Shown here piece after piece: positions 3,275 to 17,975 of a stretch of 17,975 nucleotides of DNA (position 1 is the first letter of the stretch; each line of letters opens with the position of its first letter). Source of the DNA: Flavobacteriales bacterium (lineage in GTDB: Bacteria; Bacteroidota; Bacteroidia; Flavobacteriales_D; CAJJDF01); assembly GCA_049609665.1 (NCBI GenBank), contig JBMYYT010000022.1, positions 1 to 17,975 of the forward strand. Reading direction: 5' to 3'. Both the position numbers and the translations under genes were made by a program. The notes below the pieces were generated by a model. That model did no database searches. It was not told the origin of the DNA and saw only the letters and a list, made by a program, of their open reading frames with translations.

Positions 3275-3838
3275 ATGAGTTATTTATTACCCTTAGGAAT
3301 TTTAGTACTTGTCTTAATTATCGTTATTGGAATGTATAACAGCCTTGTAGGTCGAAGAAATCAAGTTCGAAATGCATTTAGTTCGATAGATGTGATGCTG
3401 AAAAAAAGGTTTGATTTATTGCCTAATTTAATTGAAACTGTGAAACAATATGCTGGGCATGAAAAAGAAGTGTTACAGAATATAGTAGAATTAAGAAATG
3501 GATTGCAAAAGTCAGATTTATCGAGTGGAGAAAGAATTGAGATGGAGAATAAACTGACAAGTCAAATTAGTGCTTTGAACCTAACAGTTGAAAATTATCC
3601 AGATTTGAAAGCAAACGAAAACTTCTTGAATTTACAACGAAACTTGACCGAGATAGAAAGTCAACTTTCTGCTTCACGAAGAACTTATAATGCCTCTGTA
3701 TTAGATTTGAATAACGGATTAGAAAAATTCCCTTCCAATATCATAGGAGGGATGTTTGGATTTGAAAAAGAAACCTTTTTTGAAATTGCCTCTGCAGAAA
3801 GAGCTAACATTGATGTGAAAGATGCTTTTAACAACTAA
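3275..3838 (+). CDS. lemA: LemA family protein
   Basis: N-terminal TM helix followed by YNSLVGRRNQVRNAFSSIDVMLKKRFDLLPNL...YAGHEKEVL...ENYPDLKANENFL..LQ..L, the characteristic LemA pattern. The start ATG is 3 nt from an upstream stop and has an A-rich context. Confidence 0.85.
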   Translation: MSYLLPLGILVLVLIIVIGMYNSLVGRRNQVRNAFSSIDVMLKKRFDLLPNLIETVKQYAGHEKEVLQNIVELRNGLQKSDLSSGERIEMENKLTSQISALNLTVENYPDLKANENFLNLQRNLTEIESQLSASRRTYNASVLDLNNGLEKFPSNIIGGMFGFEKETFFEIASAERANIDVKDAFNN

Positions 3839-3840
3839 TT

Positions 3841-4731
3841 ATGTTGTTTGAGAATGATTCGCTGATAGACAGTGAAATAGAAAAAATAAACGCTCAAAAG
3901 GAACTGGGGAAAACGACTGCTAAAAAAGCATTTCGTATTACCTTACCCATTGGAATTGCTCTGGGTATTTTGGTATTTTATTTTTCATTAGGGGCCTTTT
4001 TTTATTTTGTGGTAGTGCTTATTTTGTGTATTCCACTCATTATAAAGTCTTATCTTAATATTGGATTGATTTCAAATTTTAAAGAGAAAATTGTAGCCTC
4101 CACCTTGTCAAAAATTTATCCTAAATTAACTTATTCTCCCGCCAAAAGAATGTCTCAATCTGCTTTTGAAAGTGCTAATTTATTTGATATAGCAGATCGA
4201 TACAAAGGGGAAGATTTGGTAGAAGGGATGCACAAGAAAACGGCTTTTTCTTTTTCGGAGGTTCATGCAGAAGCGAAACACAAAACTAAGAATGGCACTT
4301 CCTATTCTACTATTTTCAAAGGTTTGTTCATGGTAGCTGATTTTAATAAACACATTAAAAATGAGACTTATGTGTTAACCTCTGGGGGTAAGTGGTTTTC
4401 AAAATTTAAGCGAGTGAAATTGGAAAACCCTGTTTTCGAAAACAATTTCAATGTATATAGCGATAATCAAGTGGAGGCACGTTATATATTGACTCCTGCT
4501 CTGATGGAGAAAATAATAGGATTAGAGGAAAAATACAATTCTCAATTATACATGTCCTTTATTAAAACCAAAGTATACATCGCATTAAAAACTACTCACA
4601 ATTATTTTGAGCCCGATTTAAGTGACGAAGTGAGCAAAGAAACTCTGCGTGAAGTGATTAAGGAAATTGAAGAATGTATTGGGATTATTGATGAGCTGGA
4701 TCTTAATACGCGAATCTGGACAAAGGAATAA
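3841..4731 (+). CDS. LemA-associated membrane protein (DUF3137-like; family assignment tentative)
   Basis: Starts 3 nt after the lemA stop, so it is probably co-transcribed. It has two TM segments (ITLPIGIALGILVFYFSLGAFFYFVVVLILCIPLII) followed by a soluble domain. LemA genes are commonly paired with such a partner. Confidence 0.55.
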   Translation: MLFENDSLIDSEIEKINAQKELGKTTAKKAFRITLPIGIALGILVFYFSLGAFFYFVVVLILCIPLIIKSYLNIGLISNFKEKIVASTLSKIYPKLTYSPAKRMSQSAFESANLFDIADRYKGEDLVEGMHKKTAFSFSEVHAEAKHKTKNGTSYSTIFKGLFMVADFNKHIKNETYVLTSGGKWFSKFKRVKLENPVFENNFNVYSDNQVEARYILTPALMEKIIGLEEKYNSQLYMSFIKTKVYIALKTTHNYFEPDLSDEVSKETLREVIKEIEECIGIIDELDLNTRIWTKE

Positions 4732-6769: not shown

Positions 6770-6813
6770 CAAAAAAATCCATGCAGTATTGCTACCGCAT
6801 GGATTTTATTTTT
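6770..6813 (-). terminator. Rho-independent terminator of the SPFH gene (minus strand)
   Basis: 8-bp stem ATCCATGC / GCATGGAT (6777-6784 and 6797-6804) with a 12-nt loop. On the minus strand it is followed by a U-run, the complement of aaacaaaaaaa at 6770-6777, ~80 nt downstream of the SPFH stop. Confidence 0.7.
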
Positions 6814-6893: not shown

Positions 6894-8000
6894 CTATGTT
6901 TTAACAGAAAAAATTTCTTTTAGTTGTTTTACCATACCACCGTTTCCAGTAACTGATATTTCACCAATTTTATCGGCAATTTTTTCTACGTATTCCATCT
7001 CTTTCAGCTGCATCAGCATTGGGTTGTCTTCCATTAGCTTGGCTGTGTTCAACAAACTTCTTGTTTGTGCAGTTTCTTCTCTTCGAGTAATGGTGTTCGC
7101 TTGTGCTTTTTTCTGAGCAACCAATACCTGGTTCATAATTTCTTTTACATCACCCGGTAAGATAATATCTCTGATTTCAGCCTGAGATACTTTTATTCCC
7201 AGGTATTTAGCTTCATTCTCAACCATATTCAAGATCTTATCGCTCATCTCAGATTTGTTTTCCAAAAGCTGATCTAAAGTGAATTGACCAATATAAGCAC
7301 GCAATTTAGTTTGTAGCAATACGTAAAGCATTTTGTCAAATCCTTTGTTGTCCAACAATGCTTTTTTAATATCTACAATAGAATATGTCGCATCCAAGTT
7401 GATTCTTAAATTTGCTTTGTCTTGAGTCAAAATTTCTTGACCATTTACTTCCAAGATTTGCTGACGTAAGTCTGCAATTTTAAGTTCAATCTTGTTGTTG
7501 TTTCGCCAGAAGTTGTAAAAACCACTTTCCAGTTCTTTTACGAATCTACCATCTACGATAAGTAAAGCTTTTTCGTTTGAAAGCACTTCGTATTTTAGCA
7601 TATAGTTGGTAAGTACGATATTAGTTAGCATCAAATCGGCAAGTTTTTTAGGCACTTCCAATTCAGAAGTATCTACTTTCTTGTATTCAATTTTCATTGG
7701 ATTTTTCCAGAAAACGTAGTTTCCTTTTGAAATTACTTCTTTGAATAAACCATTTTCATATTTGAATAAGAGTTCATTTTCTTTTACCTCATATTTGTTA
7801 ACGAGGTTTTCAAGAGTTTCATCTTCAAACAGCAATTTCTGTTCGTTTGTTAGATTCAAAGGTGCAAGAATGTTGTAGACTCTTACATCTTCTTTCCATT
7901 TTACCCAATATTTCTGACCTTCGGTTAATACTTTAACCAATTTCTTGTCTTTTGTAACCAAGGCAACTTGGTATGTTTTTATAGTTATTAATCGTATCAT
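6894..8000 (-). CDS. SPFH / band-7 (stomatin-prohibitin-flotillin-HflK/C) domain protein
   Basis: 368 aa. The central and C-terminal region (...KALLDNKGFDKMLYVLLQTKLRAYIGQFTLDQLLENKSEMSDKILNMVENEAKYLGIKVSQAEIRDIILPGDVKEIMNQVLVAQKKAQANTITRREETAQT...) fits the SPFH fold plus a coiled-coil tail. The start has an A-rich context (caaacaaaATG). The gene lies immediately downstream of, and co-directional with, the tRNA-like array. Confidence 0.7.
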   Translation of the reverse strand: MIRLITIKTYQVALVTKDKKLVKVLTEGQKYWVKWKEDVRVYNILAPLNLTNEQKLLFEDETLENLVNKYEVKENELLFKYENGLFKEVISKGNYVFWKNPMKIEYKKVDTSELEVPKKLADLMLTNIVLTNYMLKYEVLSNEKALLIVDGRFVKELESGFYNFWRNNNKIELKIADLRQQILEVNGQEILTQDKANLRINLDATYSIVDIKKALLDNKGFDKMLYVLLQTKLRAYIGQFTLDQLLENKSEMSDKILNMVENEAKYLGIKVSQAEIRDIILPGDVKEIMNQVLVAQKKAQANTITRREETAQTRSLLNTAKLMEDNPMLMQLKEMEYVEKIADKIGEISVTGNGGMVKQLKEIFSVKT

Positions 8001-8159
8001 TTTGTTTGTTTTTTTATGTTTTAAAATTGTTGTTTTTATTAGTTAATGGATACAAATCCTTGATTCATCTCATTACGGACGGAAGTCAATGTTTCTATTT
8101 TCTGAATTCAGTTTTATTATCAAAAAGGAAAATAAACTTTAGTAAAGTATATTTCTGTT

Positions 8160-8320
8160 TAAGTTAATTCGTCTGAACCAAGACTATATTGCCAAAGACT
8201 TTCAAGTCGCCAACCAGATTGTTTTTCTTGCACAATGAACGGAACAAGAATCACCGAATCAAGAGTTTGAATTCCATAGTTTAAGGGCAGTTTTTAGACT
8301 GCGTTACTGAGCTATCCCAT
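8160..8320 (-). pseudogene. Degenerate tRNA-like remnants (5'-GTTCCGT start motif, anticodon-arm-like and D-loop-like pieces; no intact cloverleaf)
   Basis: The minus-strand reading contains GTTCCGT, which is the 5' acceptor of the Glu-type tRNAs further right. It also contains a D-loop-like GGGATAGCTCAGTAACGC and a GCAGT-CTAAAA-ACTGC hairpin. No canonical T-arm is present. Confidence 0.3.
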
Positions 8321-8324
8321 TTTA

Positions 8325-8430
8325 CATCGGGAGATGGAATCGAACCACCGTCACATACATTATCAGTGTATTGCTCTACCGTTTAGTCATACATTAGAAG
8401 TGTATTGCTTTTCCATTTAGCTATCCCGAT
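8325..8430 (-). ncRNA. tRNA-Ile(GAU)-like, 105 nt, with a ~40-nt internal duplication or insertion in the D-loop region that creates a second anticodon-like hairpin (UCU)
   Basis: Minus-strand RNA parses as follows. Acceptor 5' strand ATCGGGA, then UA, then GCU. Next comes an insert carrying the hairpin ATACA-CUUCUAA-UGUAU. Then AACGGUAGAGC, A, the anticodon arm ATACA-CUGAUAA-UGUAU (GAU), variable GUGAC, T-arm GGTGG-TTCGATT-CCATC, acceptor 3' strand TCCCGAT and discriminator G. The acceptor strands ATCGGGA / TCCCGAT pair perfectly. The segment GCAATACACTnnTAATGTATG occurs twice in tandem. Confidence 0.45.
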
Positions 8431-8431
8431 T

Positions 8432-8500
8432 TCTCGGGAGCAGGACTCGAACCTGCATCGACTTGTTCTATTACTCTAACCAACTGAGTTAAACTTCAAT
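8432..8500 (-). pseudogene. Truncated tRNA-like gene: D-arm and T-arm/acceptor are present, the anticodon arm is deleted, and the acceptor strands do not pair
   Basis: Minus-strand RNA reads ...UUUAACUCAGUUGGUUAGAGU-AAUAGAACAAGUCGAU-GCAGG-UUCGAGU-CCUGC-UCCCGAG-A. Only 16 nt separate the D-stem from the T-stem, so there is no room for an anticodon arm. Confidence 0.4.
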
Positions 8501-8525
8501 TAGAAGTTATCGGATTTGAACCGAT
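8501..8525 (-). pseudogene. Orphan tRNA 3' fragment (T-arm ATCGG-TTCAAAT-CCGAT plus acceptor), with no matching 5' half downstream
   Basis: Plus strand reads agaagtt-ATCGG-ATTTGAA-CCGAT. No complementary acceptor strand, D-arm or anticodon arm lies within ~90 nt. Confidence 0.35.
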
Positions 8526-8769
8526 GCCCTTTGAACATGAGATTTATGGATATTCTCGAACCTTCAAATCAAGTTGAATACAAATGCATCATCCAACGAA
8601 TTGGAAAGACTTGTACAATAGTGCTATACTGAAACACCCAACAGGACTTGATTGATATCTTGACTCTTACGAGTTATATTTTAAAGAACGAACGCCATTT
8701 CTTAATGACAATTCAAAGTAAAAGAACTACTACGCAATTAATTTACGTAGTAATTTTTTTTAAAATTAG

Positions 8770-12968: not shown

Positions 12969-14021
12969 TTATTTATAAAACTCAATCCTAATCTCCCTCA
13001 TAACAGTTTCAATATATTCCTTATCAGGCTCTTCAGGCAGTCTTGATTCAGAAAACAAAGTACTTAACTCATTCTTTTTAGACTCAGCCAACTCAACCAA
13101 TTCTTCGTATTCAAAATTTCCTTTTTTTACTGATAATAAATACTCTCTGTCAGCTCGCCTTACATTCAAAGTTCCTTCTGTTGCTATTTCTTCTGCCATT
13201 TTTAATAGACGAATAGTATGCATCATGTTTTTAGAATCATAATTTTTACCATGCTGAACATTACTTGCGTATCTCTCTTCATTTCTTTTTTTAGTCCATT
13301 CCCAGTATTCTTTATATTGCTTGCAATAAGTAGAATAGCTTTCCATGTGAAAAGTTAATATTGCTATGGGTTCTTCTTCTTTGGGTACGGAACTTAATGC
13401 GATGTCATTTGATTTCTCATTTTTCACTATTCCTTTATAGGGGATTGTAGGATTACGATATAGGCTAAAACAGTTCTTGAAATTAGTAATTTTCACTAAT
13501 CCACATTCGTTCTGATTTATTTCTTTACCTTTTAAAAAGGAATTCAAAGATTGAGTTTTTTTGCCAGAGTAAACAAAACAAAAATCAAGTACTCCTTTTC
13601 GTATTTCGGATATTGGATTGACAATTTTCTTGTTCAATCCTCGAGCTTTTTTTATTTGTGCGAAAGCATAATTTGCGAATGATTTTTCACATTTTTTGGA
13701 TAAAAAATCAGAAAGTTGAAACCGATCAAACAAAGGATGTTTGAACAATATGGAGTCTTCGGGCATACTTAACAATTCAAGTATGTTTGGATTGTTTTTG
13801 AGCGCTAATTCTACAAATTTGTTTAGTTCATAATAAACCACATCGTTTTTCTCATCGTTTATTTGAGAGGTATATTCCAATGAATAGTATTTTGCTCTTG
13901 GCAAGATGAAAACTCCTTTTATATCTGTATCCGAGTGTTCGTTATCCAAACCATATGCTTTGCTGCCACATATGGTTTTGAATAATATACAGTTTGATTT
14001 TTCTAATTCTTCTAAAGTCAT
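12969..14021 (-). CDS. Pol-beta-superfamily nucleotidyltransferase (minimal NTase fold), paralog 1; resembles the RNA-ligase-associated RlaP-type NTases
   Basis: The N-terminal motif ICGSKAYGLDNEHSDTDIKGVFILP is a G-S-x-A-x-G...D-x-D NTase signature. The ATGA overlap with the upstream gene indicates translational coupling. The ~250-aa C-terminal region is alpha-rich. Confidence 0.6.
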   Translation of the reverse strand: MTLEELEKSNCILFKTICGSKAYGLDNEHSDTDIKGVFILPRAKYYSLEYTSQINDEKNDVVYYELNKFVELALKNNPNILELLSMPEDSILFKHPLFDRFQLSDFLSKKCEKSFANYAFAQIKKARGLNKKIVNPISEIRKGVLDFCFVYSGKKTQSLNSFLKGKEINQNECGLVKITNFKNCFSLYRNPTIPYKGIVKNEKSNDIALSSVPKEEEPIAILTFHMESYSTYCKQYKEYWEWTKKRNEERYASNVQHGKNYDSKNMMHTIRLLKMAEEIATEGTLNVRRADREYLLSVKKGNFEYEELVELAESKKNELSTLFSESRLPEEPDKEYIETVMREIRIEFYK

Positions 14022-14767
14022 TGTTGAGTGTATTTTACGAAGAATGAATTGAAATCTTCTTGGTTAAATTTGTTATGTAAAACGGAATCTCGTTCAGCTT
14101 CATTTTTCTCGATTACTTTTTCCAAAGTTCTATAAAGCGAAGCATCCATCAAATAAAGAAAATCCTCGTTTTTAGATTCCTTCAATTTTATTAAATCTAC
14201 TATTTTTTCCTTAGTTTCTTCAGAAACTAATTCTAACAATTCATAAAATAAGACAGGTGGTATTGTGCCTTTTTCTCTTGCCCAAGTTGCCGCTAATGCT
14301 GTTCTCATGGCATAGAATAGGCTTTTCAATTTTACTTTGTCTTTTGGGTCAAATTCCAAGAATCGTTTACTCATGCTATGAAAATGAAAGAAAGTTGAAA
14401 CTGGATTGTTATTCTCTTTTGCCAATCGTTGTATATCTTTTAAAAACAACTCATCCCCAAAATAAACCATAGGGGAGTACAGCCACCCCAAAAGTGAGGC
14501 GTTTGATTTTGCTAACAATCTCAATGCTTTTCGCAAATCCCAACCCGATCCATCCAGCAAATCGCTGGTCATAAACTGGATAGTGTCCCTTTTCTCCCAA
14601 AGGTTTAAATACCATGCTGCGTTATGAACGTATATAAATCGCACATCATAATCAGAATCTGGAGATGGAAATCCCCAAGCTCTGCTTCCTGATTCACAAG
14701 CAAATAGTATTTTTATATTCTTTTCAGCTTCTATTTCTTTAAGCTTAGTTATTATTCTTGTTTTCAT
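14018..14767 (-). CDS. Pol-beta-superfamily nucleotidyltransferase, paralog 2 (RlaP-like)
   Basis: Motif LFACESGSRAWGFPSPDSDYDVRFIYV is G-S-x-A-x-G...D-x-D. The start is taken as the ATG at 14765-14767 (MKTRIITKLKE...) with an A-rich context. The longer listed ORF to 14824 would run through a tRNA-like hairpin. Confidence 0.6.
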   Translation of the reverse strand: MKTRIITKLKEIEAEKNIKILFACESGSRAWGFPSPDSDYDVRFIYVHNAAWYLNLWEKRDTIQFMTSDLLDGSGWDLRKALRLLAKSNASLLGWLYSPMVYFGDELFLKDIQRLAKENNNPVSTFFHFHSMSKRFLEFDPKDKVKLKSLFYAMRTALAATWAREKGTIPPVLFYELLELVSEETKEKIVDLIKLKESKNEDFLYLMDASLYRTLEKVIEKNEAERDSVLHNKFNQEDFNSFFVKYTQQ

Positions 14768-14781
14768 GATTTTAGTATTGT

Positions 14782-14821
14782 ACCTCCTGCCAGATTCGAA
14801 CTGGCACTCCGCAATATGCGG
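14782..14821 (-). ncRNA. tRNA 3'-end-like element (T-arm GCCAG-UUCGAAU-CUGGC plus 7 nt) in the leader of the NTase operon; the 7 nt read AGGAGGU (SD-like)
   Basis: Plus-strand 14782-14805 is ACCTCCT-GCCAG-ATTCGAA-CTGGC, a perfect 5-bp stem with the canonical T-loop. No pairing acceptor strand, D-arm or anticodon arm follows. An adjacent small hairpin CCGCA-ata-TGCGG lies at 14809-14821. Confidence 0.35.
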
Positions 14822-15102
14822 CAAATTGGCTCTAAATGCGCTTCCCTACTTTTATACTTGTTAATTTCGGTGCTTCTGCAAATTCTATTCATTAGTGAGC
14901 GTATCTCTAACAACTTCATCCAATCACTCCATGGTTTCGTTAATGGCTTTTATATTATTCTGATTTTTTTTTGTCTAATTAATTATTATATAATGCCGAA
15001 ATAGTATGAAAATAGTCCAATTTGATTGGACTATATTGAATACATCATCGGTATTACCACAGCTCTTCCCTTTAAGCTAAGGAGGTATTTTTCGGTATTA
15101 AT

Positions 15103-15666
15103 TTATCTATTACTTTTTTCAAATTGTGGTTTCCAATTTTTTGTTTTCATTATTGCTTTCACTTCTTCGTAGGACAAAGGGTAATAATCATGACAATCCA
15201 CTCCAATATCAAAAGATAAGGAAGTTGGGTCATCTGCTAAACTTCCATGGGAATGCCCGTATAAATGATAAGATCCCCAATGCGATGCATTCCATTCTCG
15301 AATTGAATAATGAAAAAGTACAATAAGTTGTTCTCCTCTTTCAAATTCTTCATCTTTTATAATTAACTCATGATAGTCCTTAATCCATTCGAATCTGGAT
15401 TGACAAGCTTGAGCAGATTTTTCATGGTTTCCATTTATAAGGTAAATCTTTCCATTTAATCTATCAAGAATTTTCCTTAGTTTGCCAGATGACATAAGAC
15501 CTACGTCACCTAAGTGATAGACTTCATCTTCTGGTTTTACTTTTTCGTTCCATTTTTGGATTAATACTTCGTCCATTTCTTCTGCGCTCTCAAAAGGGCG
15601 ATTAGTAAATTTAATTATGTTTTTGTGTCCGAAATGATGATCGGATGTAAAATATATGTTGTTCAT
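15103..15666 (-). CDS. Calcineurin-like metallophosphoesterase; candidate RNA-end phosphoesterase (2',3'-cyclic phosphate or 3'-phosphate processing)
   Basis: Metallophosphoesterase motifs in order: YFTSDHHFGH (motif I, D-x-H), HLGDVG (motif II, GD), LINGNHE (motif III, GNH[DE]), then later His-containing motifs (LFHYS..., YGHSHG). 187 aa. Confidence 0.75.
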   Translation of the reverse strand: MNNIYFTSDHHFGHKNIIKFTNRPFESAEEMDEVLIQKWNEKVKPEDEVYHLGDVGLMSSGKLRKILDRLNGKIYLINGNHEKSAQACQSRFEWIKDYHELIIKDEEFERGEQLIVLFHYSIREWNASHWGSYHLYGHSHGSLADDPTSLSFDIGVDCHDYYPLSYEEVKAIMKTKNWKPQFEKSNR

Positions 15667-15739
15667 TTTTTTCGTTTTTAATTTGTTAGTTCAAAACTAC
15701 TCTCCAAGCACGCAATTATTTTGCGCACTTGGAAGATAG

Positions 15740-16303
15740 TTATTTTCTTTTCCAGAACCACTTCTTTTTTTTAGGCTCTGGATCAGGTGCTTCCACCTTT
15801 TTTTTCTTGTTTTTAGGTTTCTTTTTCTTTGGCATTTTCGATTTTATTCTTTTCTTGAATTCATTCAAATACTCCATAAAACCATCGTTGTAGGCATACT
15901 TTTTAGCCACTTTGATTACTTCAAGTGCTTCTTTGTACTTTCCTTCACACTCAAGTAAGGATACTTTTCGAGCGTATATTACTGCCTTGTCAGATGCTTT
16001 TACTGTTAAGGCAAACTCAATTAATGTATGAGCTTTCGCGTAATCTTCATTCCAAATAAGCGCAAACAAGTAATGTGGGTATACAAAAAATGCATTCACA
16101 TCTTCTTCTAAAGCTTCTTGGTAATAGCCAATGGCTGCATCATAATTTGAGTAAGTATCGGCTTCAATTCTTCCCATCAAACACAACCCATGAGGGTTTT
16201 TTGGCTCATAGGATAATGCATAATTCAAAGATTCCACTGCTTCTTCCAGGTTATATGGATAATTATCTAATGCCTTTATTAAATATTGATTTCCTGTGTT
16301 CAT
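15740..16303 (-). CDS. TPR-like helical-repeat protein with a C-terminal poly-lysine tail
   Basis: Alpha-helical repeats with a TPR flavour (YNLEEAVESLNYALSYEPKNPHGLCLMGRIEADTYSNYDAAIGYYQEALE..., KYKEALEVIKVAKKYAYNDGFMEYL). The C-terminus reads KSKMPKKKKPKNKKKKVEAPDPEPKKKKWFWKRK. The ATG at 16301-16303 (MNTGNQ...) with an A-rich context is preferred over the listed start at 16372. Confidence 0.5.
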   Translation of the reverse strand: MNTGNQYLIKALDNYPYNLEEAVESLNYALSYEPKNPHGLCLMGRIEADTYSNYDAAIGYYQEALEEDVNAFFVYPHYLFALIWNEDYAKAHTLIEFALTVKASDKAVIYARKVSLLECEGKYKEALEVIKVAKKYAYNDGFMEYLNEFKKRIKSKMPKKKKPKNKKKKVEAPDPEPKKKKWFWKRK

Positions 16304-16480
16304 TTTGTTTTGTTTTTTTAAATGGAGAGGAGTAAATTCTCGTGAAATATGGTTTGTGAGATTCTGAATCAAGTTTAGAATGACTGATGAAAGATAGACC
16401 TCTTAATCTCGTCCCAAATTTTCAAAAAGAAGATTTTTTGGTTGTGATAATAGTATATCAAGTGATTTTTCGTTTTTTTC

Positions 16481-16510
16481 TAACATCTAACATCTAACAT
16501 CTAACATCTA
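16481..16510. repeat. Tandem heptanucleotide repeat (TAACATC) x4.3, overlapping the prfH stop codon and 3' flank
   Basis: The plus strand reads taacatc-taacatc-taacatc-taacatc-ta. On the minus strand this is (GATGTTA)n. The prfH stop TAG and its last two codons lie inside the array. Confidence 0.8.
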
Positions 16511-17193
16511 TTTTCTCTCCTCCATTCTTGTTCATTCGTTTTTCGTTTTGTTCTGTATTTTTTCGGTTTTTTATCCAGTTTAAAATCCTTTGACTTAAAA
16601 ACCTTTACTGGATTTCCTCTTTGTAAATTCAGGTGATTGTTCCACACTCCTTCTTCATTGGTTTTGATTAATGAGAGTTGATGTTCGTTCCAAGCTTTTT
16701 CTAACCTTATTTTGGCCAATTTTTTATTTTGAACTTGAGATCTTGTGTCTATCACTTTCACACTAATTCCAGTAGGTAGGTGAGTGGCTCTAATTGCCGA
16801 ACTTACTTTATTCACATGTTGTCCTCCAGGACCAGAACTTCGTGTTGCTTCATAGCGTATGTCTTTTTGATTCAATGCTTTAATACTGCTTTGTTCAATT
16901 TCGAATACTCCTACAAACCAGTTTTTTCGTTTATGGTATTTTCTAAAAGTAGATGTTCCTATCCATTGAATGGTTCCAATCCAATCATTTCCAAGCCCCT
17001 TGTTTTTTGTTGTATCTATCCACAACGAAGCCGAGTATAAATTGCCATTGATATTACTGGGTTCTCGAGTTATTATCTCATGATAACAGTCAGCTGCTTT
17101 ACACTCTTTTATGAGTTTTTTAAGCACTTGACTCACCACGAAACAACATTCTTCAGGCCCTCGTCCAGAGGTTATTTGTATGTATTTTTTCAT
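16501..17193 (-). CDS. prfH: Peptide chain release factor H (PrfH; RF-like with GGQ, lacking a codon-recognition domain) with a basic C-terminal extension
   Basis: N-terminus MKKYIQITSGRGPEECCFVVSQVLKKLIKE matches the PrfH N-terminus as recalled from E. coli, which includes GPEECC. GGQ motif is present in RSSGPGGQHVNKVSSAIRATHLPTGI. It lies directly downstream of rtcB, the known rtcB-prfH arrangement. The tail is ...KKPKKYRTKRKTNEQEWRRENRC. Confidence 0.85.
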   Translation of the reverse strand: MKKYIQITSGRGPEECCFVVSQVLKKLIKECKAADCYHEIITREPSNINGNLYSASLWIDTTKNKGLGNDWIGTIQWIGTSTFRKYHKRKNWFVGVFEIEQSSIKALNQKDIRYEATRSSGPGGQHVNKVSSAIRATHLPTGISVKVIDTRSQVQNKKLAKIRLEKAWNEHQLSLIKTNEEGVWNNHLNLQRGNPVKVFKSKDFKLDKKPKKYRTKRKTNEQEWRRENRC

Positions 17194-17209
17194 TTTGTTT
17201 TTTCTATTT

Positions 17210-17331
17210 GTTCTCGATACTATTCATAAAACTCTCGTTTTCTGAATCACTCGAACTGACAACAATGTTTTTAACTGTCAGTTAGAGTGGTTTTTAGCAC
17301 ACGATAGTGTGATAAAAATTGTATCGAGAAC
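17210..17331. repeat. Perfect 11-bp inverted repeat (GTTCTCGATAC ... GTATCGAGAAC) bracketing ~100 bp of the rtcB-prfH intergenic region; each arm is followed by TATTCAT
   Basis: 17210-17220 is the reverse complement of 17321-17331. TATTCAT occurs at 17221-17227 and at 17333-17339. An internal 6-bp hairpin ACTGAC...GTCAGT is also present. Confidence 0.7.
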
Positions 17332-17338
17332 CTATTCA

Positions 17339-17975
17339 TTAATAATTCATTCTCACTATTTTAGGAGTAAAACTTCCAATAATATCCACCAACTCCGATT
17401 GGTTCCCCATAACTTTTTTTATGTCTTTGTAAGCCATTGGGGCTTCGTCAATTCCACCTCCAATTAGTGTTACTTCCTTTTCTTTTAGTTCTTTATTCAT
17501 TTCTGTTTGAGTAAAATTTTGTTTGCATTTACTTCTGGAAAACTCTCTTCCTGCTCCATGTGAAGCAGAGTTCAAGCTAAACTGGTTTCCTTTTCCTCTC
17601 ACAATAAAACCTGGCGCTGTCATTGAACCGGGAATAATCCCAAGTTCTCCTTTTGCTGCTGGAGTTGCTCCTTTTCTGTGGACTATACATTCCTCTCCAT
17701 TCACTTTTTGTTTCCAAGCAAAGTTGTGGTGGTTGTCAATTTTTGCTACCGCTCTTGTTCCTAATTGCTTAGAAATTCTGTCGTGAATATTGTCATGACA
17801 GGCTTTTGCATAATCTCCAGCTAAGTTCATAGCCAACCAGTATTCCATTCCATCGTGAGTGGTTGTGTCCAGCCAAGCCAGATGTTGCACTTGCTTTGGT
17901 AATGGGCATTGTTTTTCTGCCAATCGAGAATAATGCATCGCGATATTTGCTCCCAATCCTCGTGATCCACTGTGA
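17339..17975 (-). CDS. rtcB: RNA-splicing ligase RtcB (3'-phosphate/5'-hydroxyl ligase), C-terminal ~210 aa; the N-terminus lies beyond the window edge
   Basis: The frame stays open to base 17975. Upstream of the listed TTG it reads ...HSGSRGLGANIAM..., a conserved RtcB motif. Downstream motifs include KIDNHHNFAW, GIIPGSMTAPGFIV and NSASHGAGREFSR, the RtcB active-site His region. Confidence 0.85.
   Translation of the reverse strand, partial: HSGSRGLGANIAMHYSRLAEKQCPLPKQVQHLAWLDTTTHDGMEYWLAMNLAGDYAKACHDNIHDRISKQLGTRAVAKIDNHHNFAWKQKVNGEECIVHRKGATPAAKGELGIIPGSMTAPGFIVRGKGNQFSLNSASHGAGREFSRSKCKQNFTQTEMNKELKEKEVTLIGGGIDEAPMAYKDIKKVMGNQSELVDIIGSFTPKIVRMNY

Follow-up and report, generated by a model that had tools for sequence, protein, structure and literature searches.

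A modular Bacteroidota locus, predicted to respond to RNA damage, joins an SPFH gene and Y-RNA-like tRNA mimics with a tRNA array and RNA-repair genes

Ribotoxins, including colicins, CdiA and type VI secretion system (T6SS) effectors, and the anticodon nucleases of phage defence, kill by cutting tRNA and rRNA. To our knowledge, the means by which bacteria survive such toxins have been worked out mainly in E. coli and Salmonella. The present work concerns a locus of Bacteroidota in which a gene for an SPFH (Band-7) protein is found together with tRNA-like RNAs, an array of tRNA genes and genes for RNA-repair enzymes, and which was analysed in a contig of a metagenome-assembled genome (MAG) annotated as “Flavobacteriales bacterium”; we will refer to this entire contig of 17,975 nt as the window. 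The closest described class, combining Band-7/SPFH with a “b7a-tRNA” and RtcB, was predicted by Burroughs and Aravind in 2016 and is presented as unvalidated in bioRxiv 10.1101/312249, which agrees with the original prediction made for this DNA, where the syntax of SPFH, tRNA-like RNA and RtcB had been called predicted and not experimentally characterised.

Several modules of such loci have been described on their own. PrfH promotes peptide release on ribosomes whose 16S rRNA has been cut at A1493/G1494, and RtcB then reseals the rRNA (PMC9304027, PMC9223846, PMC13166195, PMC12829566); repair by PrfH and RtcB2 has been shown for ribosomes cleaved by colicin E3 or CdiA (PMC9304027, PMC9223846, PMC13166195), and the rescue of ribotoxin-cleaved ribosomes by RtcB-PrfH, on which the original prediction relied, is indeed experimentally known (PMC9304027, PMC9223846, PMC12829566). 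The PrfH-CT subfamily, typical of Flavobacteriia, rescues both ribotoxin-damaged and non-stop ribosomes (PMC12829566). The nucleotidyltransferase RlaP, in its Pseudomonas orthologues, appends 1-2 nucleoside monophosphates to the 3'-OH of damaged RNA and can restore over-trimmed tRNA; its products are not directly RtcB-compatible, and more end processing would be needed (PMC12776372). Regarding the RNA partners, YrlA mimics tRNA (bioRxiv 10.1101/312249) and is not an anticodon-nuclease substrate (PMC7790460). Finally, the trn operon of Anabaena PCC 7120 is a long tRNA array that is switched on by translational stress, is regulated together with rtcB and yields mostly aminoacylated tRNAs (PMC8421152).

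The locus at 6894-17975 of the window falls within the predicted Band-7/tRNA-like/RtcB class, as an unusually complete case. The Band-7 gene adjoins a gene for a tRNA-like RNA, RtcB is in its vicinity, and the island contains genes for RtcB, PrfH, a TPR protein, a metallophosphoesterase, two RlaPs, a 395-aa protein and an ATP-grasp protein, together with the tRNA array and the SPFH gene. The minus-strand-only layout claimed earlier was borne out by the list of open reading frames (ORFs), every family-supported one of 60 aa or more lying on that strand throughout, and profile searches returned the same families as had been assigned to RtcB, PrfH, the metallophosphoesterase (Metallophos), both RlaPs and SPFH. 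We read the locus, with a probability of about 0.7, as a modular Bacteroidota RNA-damage (ribotoxin) response locus, whereas we infer below what the SPFH protein with its RNA, the array and the ATP-grasp protein would each do specifically. The core of the original prediction, a conserved conflict-type island responding to RNA damage, holds; the families are correct and their linkage recurs.

This linkage was counted in 64 independent genome loci with full flanks, belonging to several orders. Co-oriented tRNA genes are found within 5 kb upstream of SPFH in 54 of the 64 (median 6.5, up to 16), and 42 have an RtcB gene at a distance of up to 10 kb, which in 41 of these 42 shares the strand of SPFH. 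A homologue of the TPR protein follows PrfH or lies near SPFH in 19 loci, PrfH is present in 11, the RlaP pair is kept in 8-9 and the phosphoesterase in 4, while neither tRNAs nor any repair gene were found in 2/64. The three closest relatives (67-72% identity) carry RtcB, then PrfH-TPR and/or the RlaP pair, 8-14 tRNAs and SPFH. Module content upstream of SPFH is highly variable, and the flanking genes differ among genomes. The gene linkage, recurring in Flavobacteriales and Chitinophagales as the original prediction expected, is not chance. The occurrence of tRNA clusters in many bacteria, and terminators that point to independent units, would suit a cluster of housekeeping tRNAs that came to lie beside unrelated genes by accident; nevertheless, since the combination recurs in independent loci over several orders, and the array is variable, incomplete and almost free of Gly, Ala and Thr species, unlike a core tRNA set, such an accident is scarcely credible.

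The part of the locus adjoining the SPFH gene consists of the following features:

6894-8000, minus strand: SPFH/stomatin-like “slipin” protein (PF01145 Band_7, 93 bits)
8293-8463, minus strand: permuted tRNA-like module 2 (8399-8463) and a further tRNA-like element (~8326-8428), found with YrlA, R2 and Rfam tRNA
8465-8537, minus strand: permuted tRNA-like module 1 (RNAalifold; model R2, 64.9 bits)
8535-8668, minus strand: element X, a structured RNA (nhmmer, alignment A2, covariance model R1)

The SPFH protein matches stomatin structures of the PDB (PH stomatin, 1e-20) and QmcA, with values from 1e-20 to 6e-15. An N-terminal membrane anchor of the stomatin, HflK/C or QmcA type was looked for in it and not found, the maximal 19-residue Kyte-Doolittle mean being 0.87, and the protein, with no predicted membrane segment, is probably soluble. 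More than 6000 homologues exist, and the protein is part of a large Bacteroidota “slipin” clade. Its N-terminal extension of ~150 aa comprises two similar beta-rich segments (...G.Y.FW...), and the homologues of Chryseobacterium and Sediminibacterium are longer (433-507 aa).

Element X, of ~125 nt, is formed by a closing helix around two hairpins, followed by an A-rich hairpin. Matches were obtained with nhmmer in 63 sources, and alignment A2 shows compensatory changes in 18 of its 29 pairs. Model R1 finds one element X per examined Flavobacteriales locus, on the SPFH strand, at 102-142 bits (113.7 in the window). It is situated between the tRNA array and the permuted modules in L002-L083 (Flavobacteriales), and is absent from Chitinophagales-type loci; no match was found in Rfam 15, permissive settings included. 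A phage origin of X was considered and discarded, as its 17-mer core gave four matches on viral contigs, all of them in coding sequences and at 16-25 bits, compared with more than 100 for true elements.

The two permuted modules have a tRNA-like composition in a different order. Module 1 runs through a 5-bp closing stem, a variable-loop-like GGGUC, a T-arm, a loop-closed acceptor-like stem, UA and a D-arm, a fold that RNAalifold found unaided and in which 20/25 pairs are compensatory. In the trimmed module alignment, 97% of the cells are paired, against 76% in shuffles and 37-49% with slid partners; double changes occur in 17/20 pairs, a number reached by 0/500 shuffles. The topology (T-arm, closed acceptor-like hairpin, D-arm, closing stem) is that of the Rfam YrlA consensus (RF02553), which aligns full-length to module 2 of the window, at 32.2 bits (38.2 in L002) and hence below its gathering score of 69. 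Model R2 gives matches of 36.9 and 31.3 bits in 8293-8463 and Rfam tRNA reaches 35 bits at 8332-8390, the further tRNA-like element having duplicated D and anticodon arms (internal duplication D6). Across related genomes, R2 recovers modules with 50-88 bits in ~76 of 82 loci, at a position 350-550 nt ahead of the SPFH start, and the Chitinophagales-type loci without X are among these; most loci have two or three T-arm units. The modules have no free acceptor end, and module 1 has no anticodon loop, so they would neither be aminoacylated nor be cut by an anticodon nuclease. Judged by sequence and predicted fold, the permuted modules are tRNA mimics and not tRNAs. In L021, L025, L034, L041, L057 and L080, a hairpin rich in G+C, with a T/A-rich run behind it, immediately precedes the start codon of SPFH; this hairpin, not evident in the window, could either terminate the Y-like RNA or act as an attenuator.

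A different reading of the same RNA would make X and the permuted modules a cis-acting 5' leader of the SPFH mRNA, sensing tRNA-related signals, processing enzymes or RtcB. Consistent with this, the X/module RNA invariably shares the strand of SPFH and precedes it by 350-1000 nt, the stretch from 8270 to 8000 of the window contains no terminator, and the attenuator-like hairpin with its T-run directly precedes the SPFH start codon in several loci. On the other hand, YrlA, the closest structural analogue, is a stable stand-alone RNA bound by a neighbour-encoded protein (bioRxiv 10.1101/312249, PMC7790460), the AT-rich spacer of 270 nt that leads up to the SPFH gene lacks conservation, and tRNA-like modules would be natural substrates of RNase P or RNase Z. 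We consider the leader unlikely, and favour a separate Y-RNA-like non-coding RNA (ncRNA) as part of the damage-response locus.

Upstream lie the genes of the RtcB-PrfH-TPR unit, the phosphoesterase and the RlaP pair:

17339-17975, minus strand: RtcB RNA ligase of the PrfH-linked type, C-terminal part (PF01139, 157 bits)
16501-17193, minus strand: PrfH of the PrfH-CT subfamily (TIGR03072, 234 bits; cut-off 166.65)
15740-16372, minus strand: TPR protein with a Lys-rich C-terminal tail (weak TPR repeat matches; likely start ATG 16303)
15103-15666, minus strand: calcineurin-like metallophosphoesterase (PF12850, 28.7 bits, cut-off 27; PF00149, 24.4 bits, cut-off 21.5)
14018-14824, minus strand: RlaP nucleotidyltransferase 1 (PF10127 over its full length, 236 bits; probable start ATG 14767)
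12969-14021, minus strand: RlaP-family nucleotidyltransferase 2, 350 aa (N-terminal half of PF10127, 84 bits)

The N-terminal half of RtcB is lost at the contig end; the remainder covers profile positions 192-423 of PF01139, well above the gathering score of 27, and is 75-89% identical to the RtcBs that precede PrfH in L001, L002, L021 and L034. PrfH lies directly downstream of RtcB on the same strand. Its translation contains the GGQ motif within SGPGGQH (residues 120-126) and, past ~residue 205, a basic C-terminal tail (KLDKKPKKYRTKRK..., KLDKKPKKYRTKRKTNEQEWRRENRC), as described for PrfH-CT (PMC12829566); an exact-sequence look-up of the window PrfH gave no match. The lysine tail that had been noted for the TPR protein is visible in its translation, and only its description as an unannotated extra has to be given up, because this protein had already been noted as a PrfH-RtcB neighbour (PMC6514570). 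In two close relatives, a gene for a WYL-WCX regulator is divergent from and next to RtcB (L002 1-2774, L004 2838-5338), and this regulator may be the counterpart of RtcR. L002 also carries a second RtcB, followed by a TatD-like nuclease.

The metallophosphoesterase matches the phosphoesterase family phrog_547 at 182 bits and PDB 1xm7 at 2e-11, and its metal-binding motifs (DHHFGH, GDVG, GNHE, GHSH) are intact. It is a candidate enzyme for healing RNA 3' ends, a role suggested by the further processing that RlaP products would need before RtcB (PMC12776372). RlaP1, with a GS...DSDYD motif, matches phrog_14344 at 210 bits, and RlaP2 matches phrog_388 full-length at 177 bits; the Pol-beta motifs of the two proteins are GSRAWGFPSPDSDYD and GSKAYGLDNEHSDTD, and the RlaP2 gene overlaps the RlaP1 stop by 4 nt. 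RlaP2-type nucleotidyltransferases occur in phages as well, with 272 records, some of them from jumbo phages of Tenacibaculum and Prevotella. Tenacibaculum phage PTm1 was also looked at and set aside: it has an RlaP2-type nucleotidyltransferase with no tRNAs or other island genes nearby.

Such phage matches raise the question of whether the island is a phage-derived or otherwise mobile cassette that entered an insertion hotspot beside a housekeeping SPFH gene, its parts sharing no function. RlaP1, RlaP2, the phosphoesterase and RtcB match phage protein families full length, RlaP2-type proteins extend to jumbo phages, and the modules upstream of SPFH change from genome to genome, all of which would fit a cassette. 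However, the window has no integrase, structural or replication genes, and a composition break only at the RNA genes; RtcB is co-oriented with SPFH almost without exception (41/42), the tRNA-mimic RNA belongs to an invariant core with SPFH, and the differing flanking genes indicate that the SPFH core moves with the modules. A mere insertion hotspot is thus very unlikely, and we keep to a functional response locus built around that core.

Between the protein genes and element X lies the tRNA array, several members of which are degenerate:

8871-10256, minus strand: array of 10 intact tRNA genes (ARAGORN, Rfam)
9727-9920, minus strand: degenerate tRNA remnants, 194 nt
9436-9553, minus strand: repeat-interrupted tRNA-Ile(GAU), with the insert after the T-loop TTC
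9250-9357, minus strand: mini-helix copy of the 3' end of tRNA-Leu(UAG) plus CCA, with nested repeat copies
8945-9085, minus strand: Gln-like pseudo-tRNA with D-loop and T-loop inserts
8770-8866, minus strand: tRNA-Phe(GAA) with a T-loop repeat insert (Rfam tRNA, 29.8 bits)

The intact tRNAs are Ser-GCU, Cys, Glu, Tyr, Ser-UGA, Ile-UAU, Leu-UAG, Leu-UAA, Arg-ACG and His. Together with 3-4 disrupted ones they fit inside 1.5 kb, ~5-10 nt apart, and almost none has a full CCA encoded; weaker tRNA-like Rfam matches extend the array region to 8332. The original prediction had described a single 2.2-kb tRNA-like array; an array is certainly there, yet the stretch divides into a tRNA set and the separate Y-RNA-like ncRNA. 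Identity elements are kept, namely the encoded G-1 of tRNA-His opposite C73, A73 in Leu, intact stems, and long variable arms in Ser and Tyr. The tRNAs with Leu anticodons (UAG, 9358-9432, and UAA, 9173-9247, both minus strand), of ~75 nt, are without the long variable arm expected in bacterial tRNA-Leu, and such short-arm Leu tRNAs with A73 are conserved across the arrays of L002-L084.

The repertoire was counted in the arrays of 67 loci, comprising 508 tRNA genes with a median spacing of 7 nt. The common species are Asp, Phe, His, Pro-UGG, Leu-UAG, Lys, Arg-ACG, Asn, Gln, Tyr, Ser-GCU, Cys and Glu, and Gly, Ala and Thr together account for 6 of the 508; the content differs between genomes and the bias is common to them. 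Nearly all 3' ends consist of N73-C followed by an A-rich spacer, without a full CCA. The favoured species probably have anticodon loops that carry many modifications and are attacked by known anticodon nucleases.

The sequence inserted into array members (~yCTGAGCGMAGTCGAAGr) is a short repeat dispersed over many Bacteroidota loci, where it occurs in either orientation, in and outside arrays, and its excision restores the ARAGORN calls for tRNA-Ile and tRNA-Phe. We also considered the T- and D-loop inserts (CCTTCGAC-N4-CTCAGGG and its complement) as a ribozyme, an intron or a split-tRNA pairing; these options were rejected, as the insert is the dispersed repeat, Rfam finds no ribozyme, and excision restores the tRNAs. 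The insertions after the T-loop TTC may mark a mobile repeat that targets T-loops. The mini-helix of the tRNA-Leu(UAG) 3' end is also conserved at L004 8903-8993. Two mechanically called ORFs (9708-9911, minus strand, 67 aa; 8648-8953, plus strand, 101 aa) overlap tRNA remnants, tRNA-His and element X, and are almost certainly not genes. An origin of the array from phage was likewise dismissed, the comparison of the whole array with phage genomes having given generic single-tRNA similarity only.

It could be argued that the array tRNAs act mainly as decoys or sponges for tRNA-cleaving toxins, or as damage-signalling substrates, rather than as replacements in translation. The missing long arm of the “Leu” tRNAs and the skew toward heavily modified anticodon loops, presumably typical nuclease targets, are in line with it, and a sponge role has been proposed for the Anabaena operonic tRNAs (PMC8421152). 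Yet the identity elements retained in His, Leu, Ser and Tyr species, together with the intact stems, speak for tRNAs fit for use, and 23/26 of the Anabaena array tRNAs are aminoacylated in vivo (PMC8421152). A predominant decoy function therefore seems doubtful, and replacement or buffering of tRNAs is the role we prefer for the array.

Three further features lie between RlaP2 and the array:

11750-12937, minus strand: 395-aa protein with a tandem-duplicated domain (probable start 12898), likely a passenger
11528-11710, minus strand: small stand-alone unit with a -7 box (TATATTTG), a 39-codon ORF or small RNA, and an intrinsic terminator (11528-11550)
10480-11280, minus strand: RimK/synapsin-like ATP-grasp protein, 266 aa (YheCD, TTL and RimK matches below cut-off; AlphaFold2, Foldseek)

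The ATP-grasp RNA ligases of the Burroughs-Aravind syntax are reportedly Rnl-type nucleotidyltransferase ligases. The window protein appears to be of another kind. All its matches to the Pfam and NCBIfam families RimK, TTL and YheCD are below cut-off, and its AlphaFold2 model (predicted local distance difference test, pLDDT, 92) has a three-domain ATP-grasp fold whose top Foldseek matches (E 1e-13 to 1e-14, TM 0.7-0.8) are the synapsin C domain, RimK, D-Ala-D-Ala ligase (Ddl) and macrocyclases of ribosomally synthesized and post-translationally modified peptides (RiPPs), with no Rnl, DNA ligase or capping enzyme among the top 50 structural matches. On this modelled structure, the protein has the fold of a carboxylate-amine ligase and not of an RNA ligase, and the claim that the island carries both ligase classes has to be abandoned. 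The gene lies between array and SPFH in 7 Flavobacterium loci (of 64), homologues stand alone in Mucilaginibacter and Fischerella, and the protein may be a lineage-specific accessory.

The 395-aa protein is a tandem copy of a ~165-aa domain, a duplication that had been recognised earlier and is visible in the translation. The domain family is rare (41 representatives among 1.8 billion proteins); no match was found in Pfam, NCBIfam, PADLOC or PHROG, and the only notable fold neighbour is the uncharacterised Bacteroides protein BT_1490. Because it is absent from all 64 related loci and its single-domain relatives lie in unrelated gene neighbourhoods, this protein is likely a passenger, and its former listing as an island component does not stand. 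The small unit, between the 395-aa ORF and the ATP-grasp gene, has a -7 box of Bacteroidota type and a strong terminator.

Besides the terminator of the small unit, four hairpins delimit the parts of the island, giving five terminator-like minus-strand hairpins in total:

15702-15734, minus strand: terminator-like hairpin 3' of the RtcB-PrfH-TPR unit, then a Bacteroidota-type -7 box (TAGTTTTG) at 15692-15699
10294-10325, minus strand: intrinsic terminator at the boundary of the ATP-grasp gene and the tRNA array (GGCACCT-AAATC-AGGTGCC and a T7 run, by direct reading)
8725-8755, minus strand: terminator-like hairpin at the boundary of the tRNA array and the Y-like RNA
6774-6807, minus strand: intrinsic terminator 3' of the SPFH gene, at the island end

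The three terminators of the original prediction were all found again (11528-11550, 6774-6807 and, by direct reading, 10294-10325); its four transcription units are too few, the hairpins at 15702-15734 and 8725-8755 having been overlooked. The left third of the contig (1-6755) contains ordinary Bacteroidota genes on both strands, encoding a protein sorted by the type IX secretion system (T9SS), Omp85, PHO4, LemA-DUF3137 and a beta-lactamase-fold protein; the LemA-DUF3137 pair (3275-4731, plus strand) belongs to this housekeeping half and has no relation to the island.

Broadly, the locus would work from a core formed by a soluble SPFH protein and an upstream, same-strand Y-RNA-like ncRNA (X in Flavobacteriales and two to three permuted modules), upstream of which variable co-oriented modules would have accreted. 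In the RtcB-PrfH(CT)-TPR module, PrfH would free the peptide from 16S-cleaved or non-stop ribosomes and RtcB would reseal the rRNA, as their orthologues do. The phosphoesterase and the two RlaPs would trim 3' ends and restore 1-2 nt on damaged tRNAs before ligation, and some lineages would have added a RimK-like ATP-grasp ligase. The array would supply spare, identity-competent tRNA genes, replenishing or buffering species with anticodon loops typically hit by nucleases, by analogy with the Anabaena trn operon (PMC8421152). An SPFH oligomer with the tRNA-mimic RNA could serve as scaffold, cofactor or nuclease decoy, with Ro60-YrlA of the rsr-yrlBA-rtcBA operons as the model (PMC7790460). A more ambitious version, which we put forward tentatively, is that of a widespread cytoplasmic ribonucleoprotein in which a membrane-less SPFH oligomer and a dedicated ncRNA of ~300-400 nt (X and tandem permuted mimics) would take a Ro60-Y RNA-like role or form a vault-like cage, organising RtcB-, PrfH- and RlaP-based repair; it would handle a private pool of nuclease-target tRNAs, the short-arm “Leu” included, and X would be a new RNA family and its SPFH-binding module.

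Several points weigh against the damage-response reading. The contig end cuts RtcB, and the flank where the WYL protein sits in L002 and L004 is beyond the window. No demonstrable link to RNA exists for the ATP-grasp and 395-aa proteins. Several array members are disrupted by repeat insertions, and the array could be decaying in the window. The five terminator-like hairpins divide the island into separate units, which may or may not be co-regulated, and a PADLOC search gave no significant defence-family match. The RNA partner of SPFH is a predicted one, and with no terminator between them in the window this RNA could instead be the 5' leader of the SPFH mRNA. All parts of the locus are, furthermore, known here from sequence alone.

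Loci of this type abound in Flavobacteriales and Chitinophagales, including fish pathogens and abundant marine and soil taxa, and join biochemically known modules (RtcB-PrfH-CT, RlaP) with predicted ones (a soluble SPFH with a Y-like RNA, and tRNA arrays). A specialist aware of the 2016 prediction would not be greatly surprised by it; its RNA and array features exceed routine annotation, and element X and the permuted module, each with its covariance model, offer handles to probe SPFH as an RNA-binding scaffold and tRNA mimics in repair.

Compared with known systems, the locus shares with the b7a-tRNA class an SPFH gene beside a tRNA-like RNA and RtcB, for which a scaffold with a cognate ncRNA for repair has been proposed; as bioRxiv 10.1101/312249 describes them, those systems have a single ncRNA “strongly resembling an authentic tRNA”, and YrlA is “occasionally” found near Band-7. 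Measured against the description in that citing text, our loci differ in that nearly all have a permuted YrlA-type mimic, X being added in Flavobacteriales, and in that the tRNAs that look authentic are set apart in an array, which has up to 16 genes. We could not confirm the near-universal permuted topology, X, the tandem modules, the biased arrays or the short-arm Leu tRNAs as previously described.

With the Salmonella rsr-yrlBA-rtcBA operon, the locus has in common a tRNA-mimicking ncRNA (T-arm, closed acceptor-like hairpin, D-arm) that neighbours the genes for RtcB and for a putative RNA-binding scaffold (PMC7790460). It differs in having no long Ro-binding stem, the closing stem being of 5 bp and flanked by X and a second module, as well as in its tandem modules, its SPFH partner and, in relatives, a WYL regulator perhaps in place of RtcR; neither the proteins of the window nor the genes called in L001, L002 and L004 gave a match to Ro60/TROVE (rsr). 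The RtcB2-PrfH modules of E. coli ATCC25922 and, with PrfH-CT, Capnocytophaga gingivalis likewise have adjacent genes, GGQ and, in the latter type, the basic tail of Flavobacteriia (PMC12829566), whereas here the module lies inside a larger island with TPR, RlaPs, phosphoesterase, tRNA array and SPFH-RNA core. RlaP of Pseudomonas rtcB operons and NrdC.11 of phage T4 resemble the window proteins in PF10127, the nucleotidyltransferase motif and a nearby RNA ligase (PMC12776372); the window, by contrast, has two translationally coupled paralogues with a phosphoesterase ahead of them, and no RtcA. RimK, the poly-glutamate ligase of ribosomal protein S6, and the synapsin C domain share the ATP-grasp fold of the window protein (TM 0.7-0.8), at 14-18% identity and below Pfam and NCBIfam cut-offs.

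Finally, the layout of many co-oriented, closely spaced tRNA genes is that of the L-arrays, which also consist of tight accessory tRNAs with some pseudogenes and are linked to rtcB either genomically or by regulation (PMC8421152). The arrays described here are shorter (1-16 genes), almost lack Gly, Ala and Thr through a bias of their own, contain short-arm Leu tRNAs, and are fixed upstream of an SPFH-ncRNA core.

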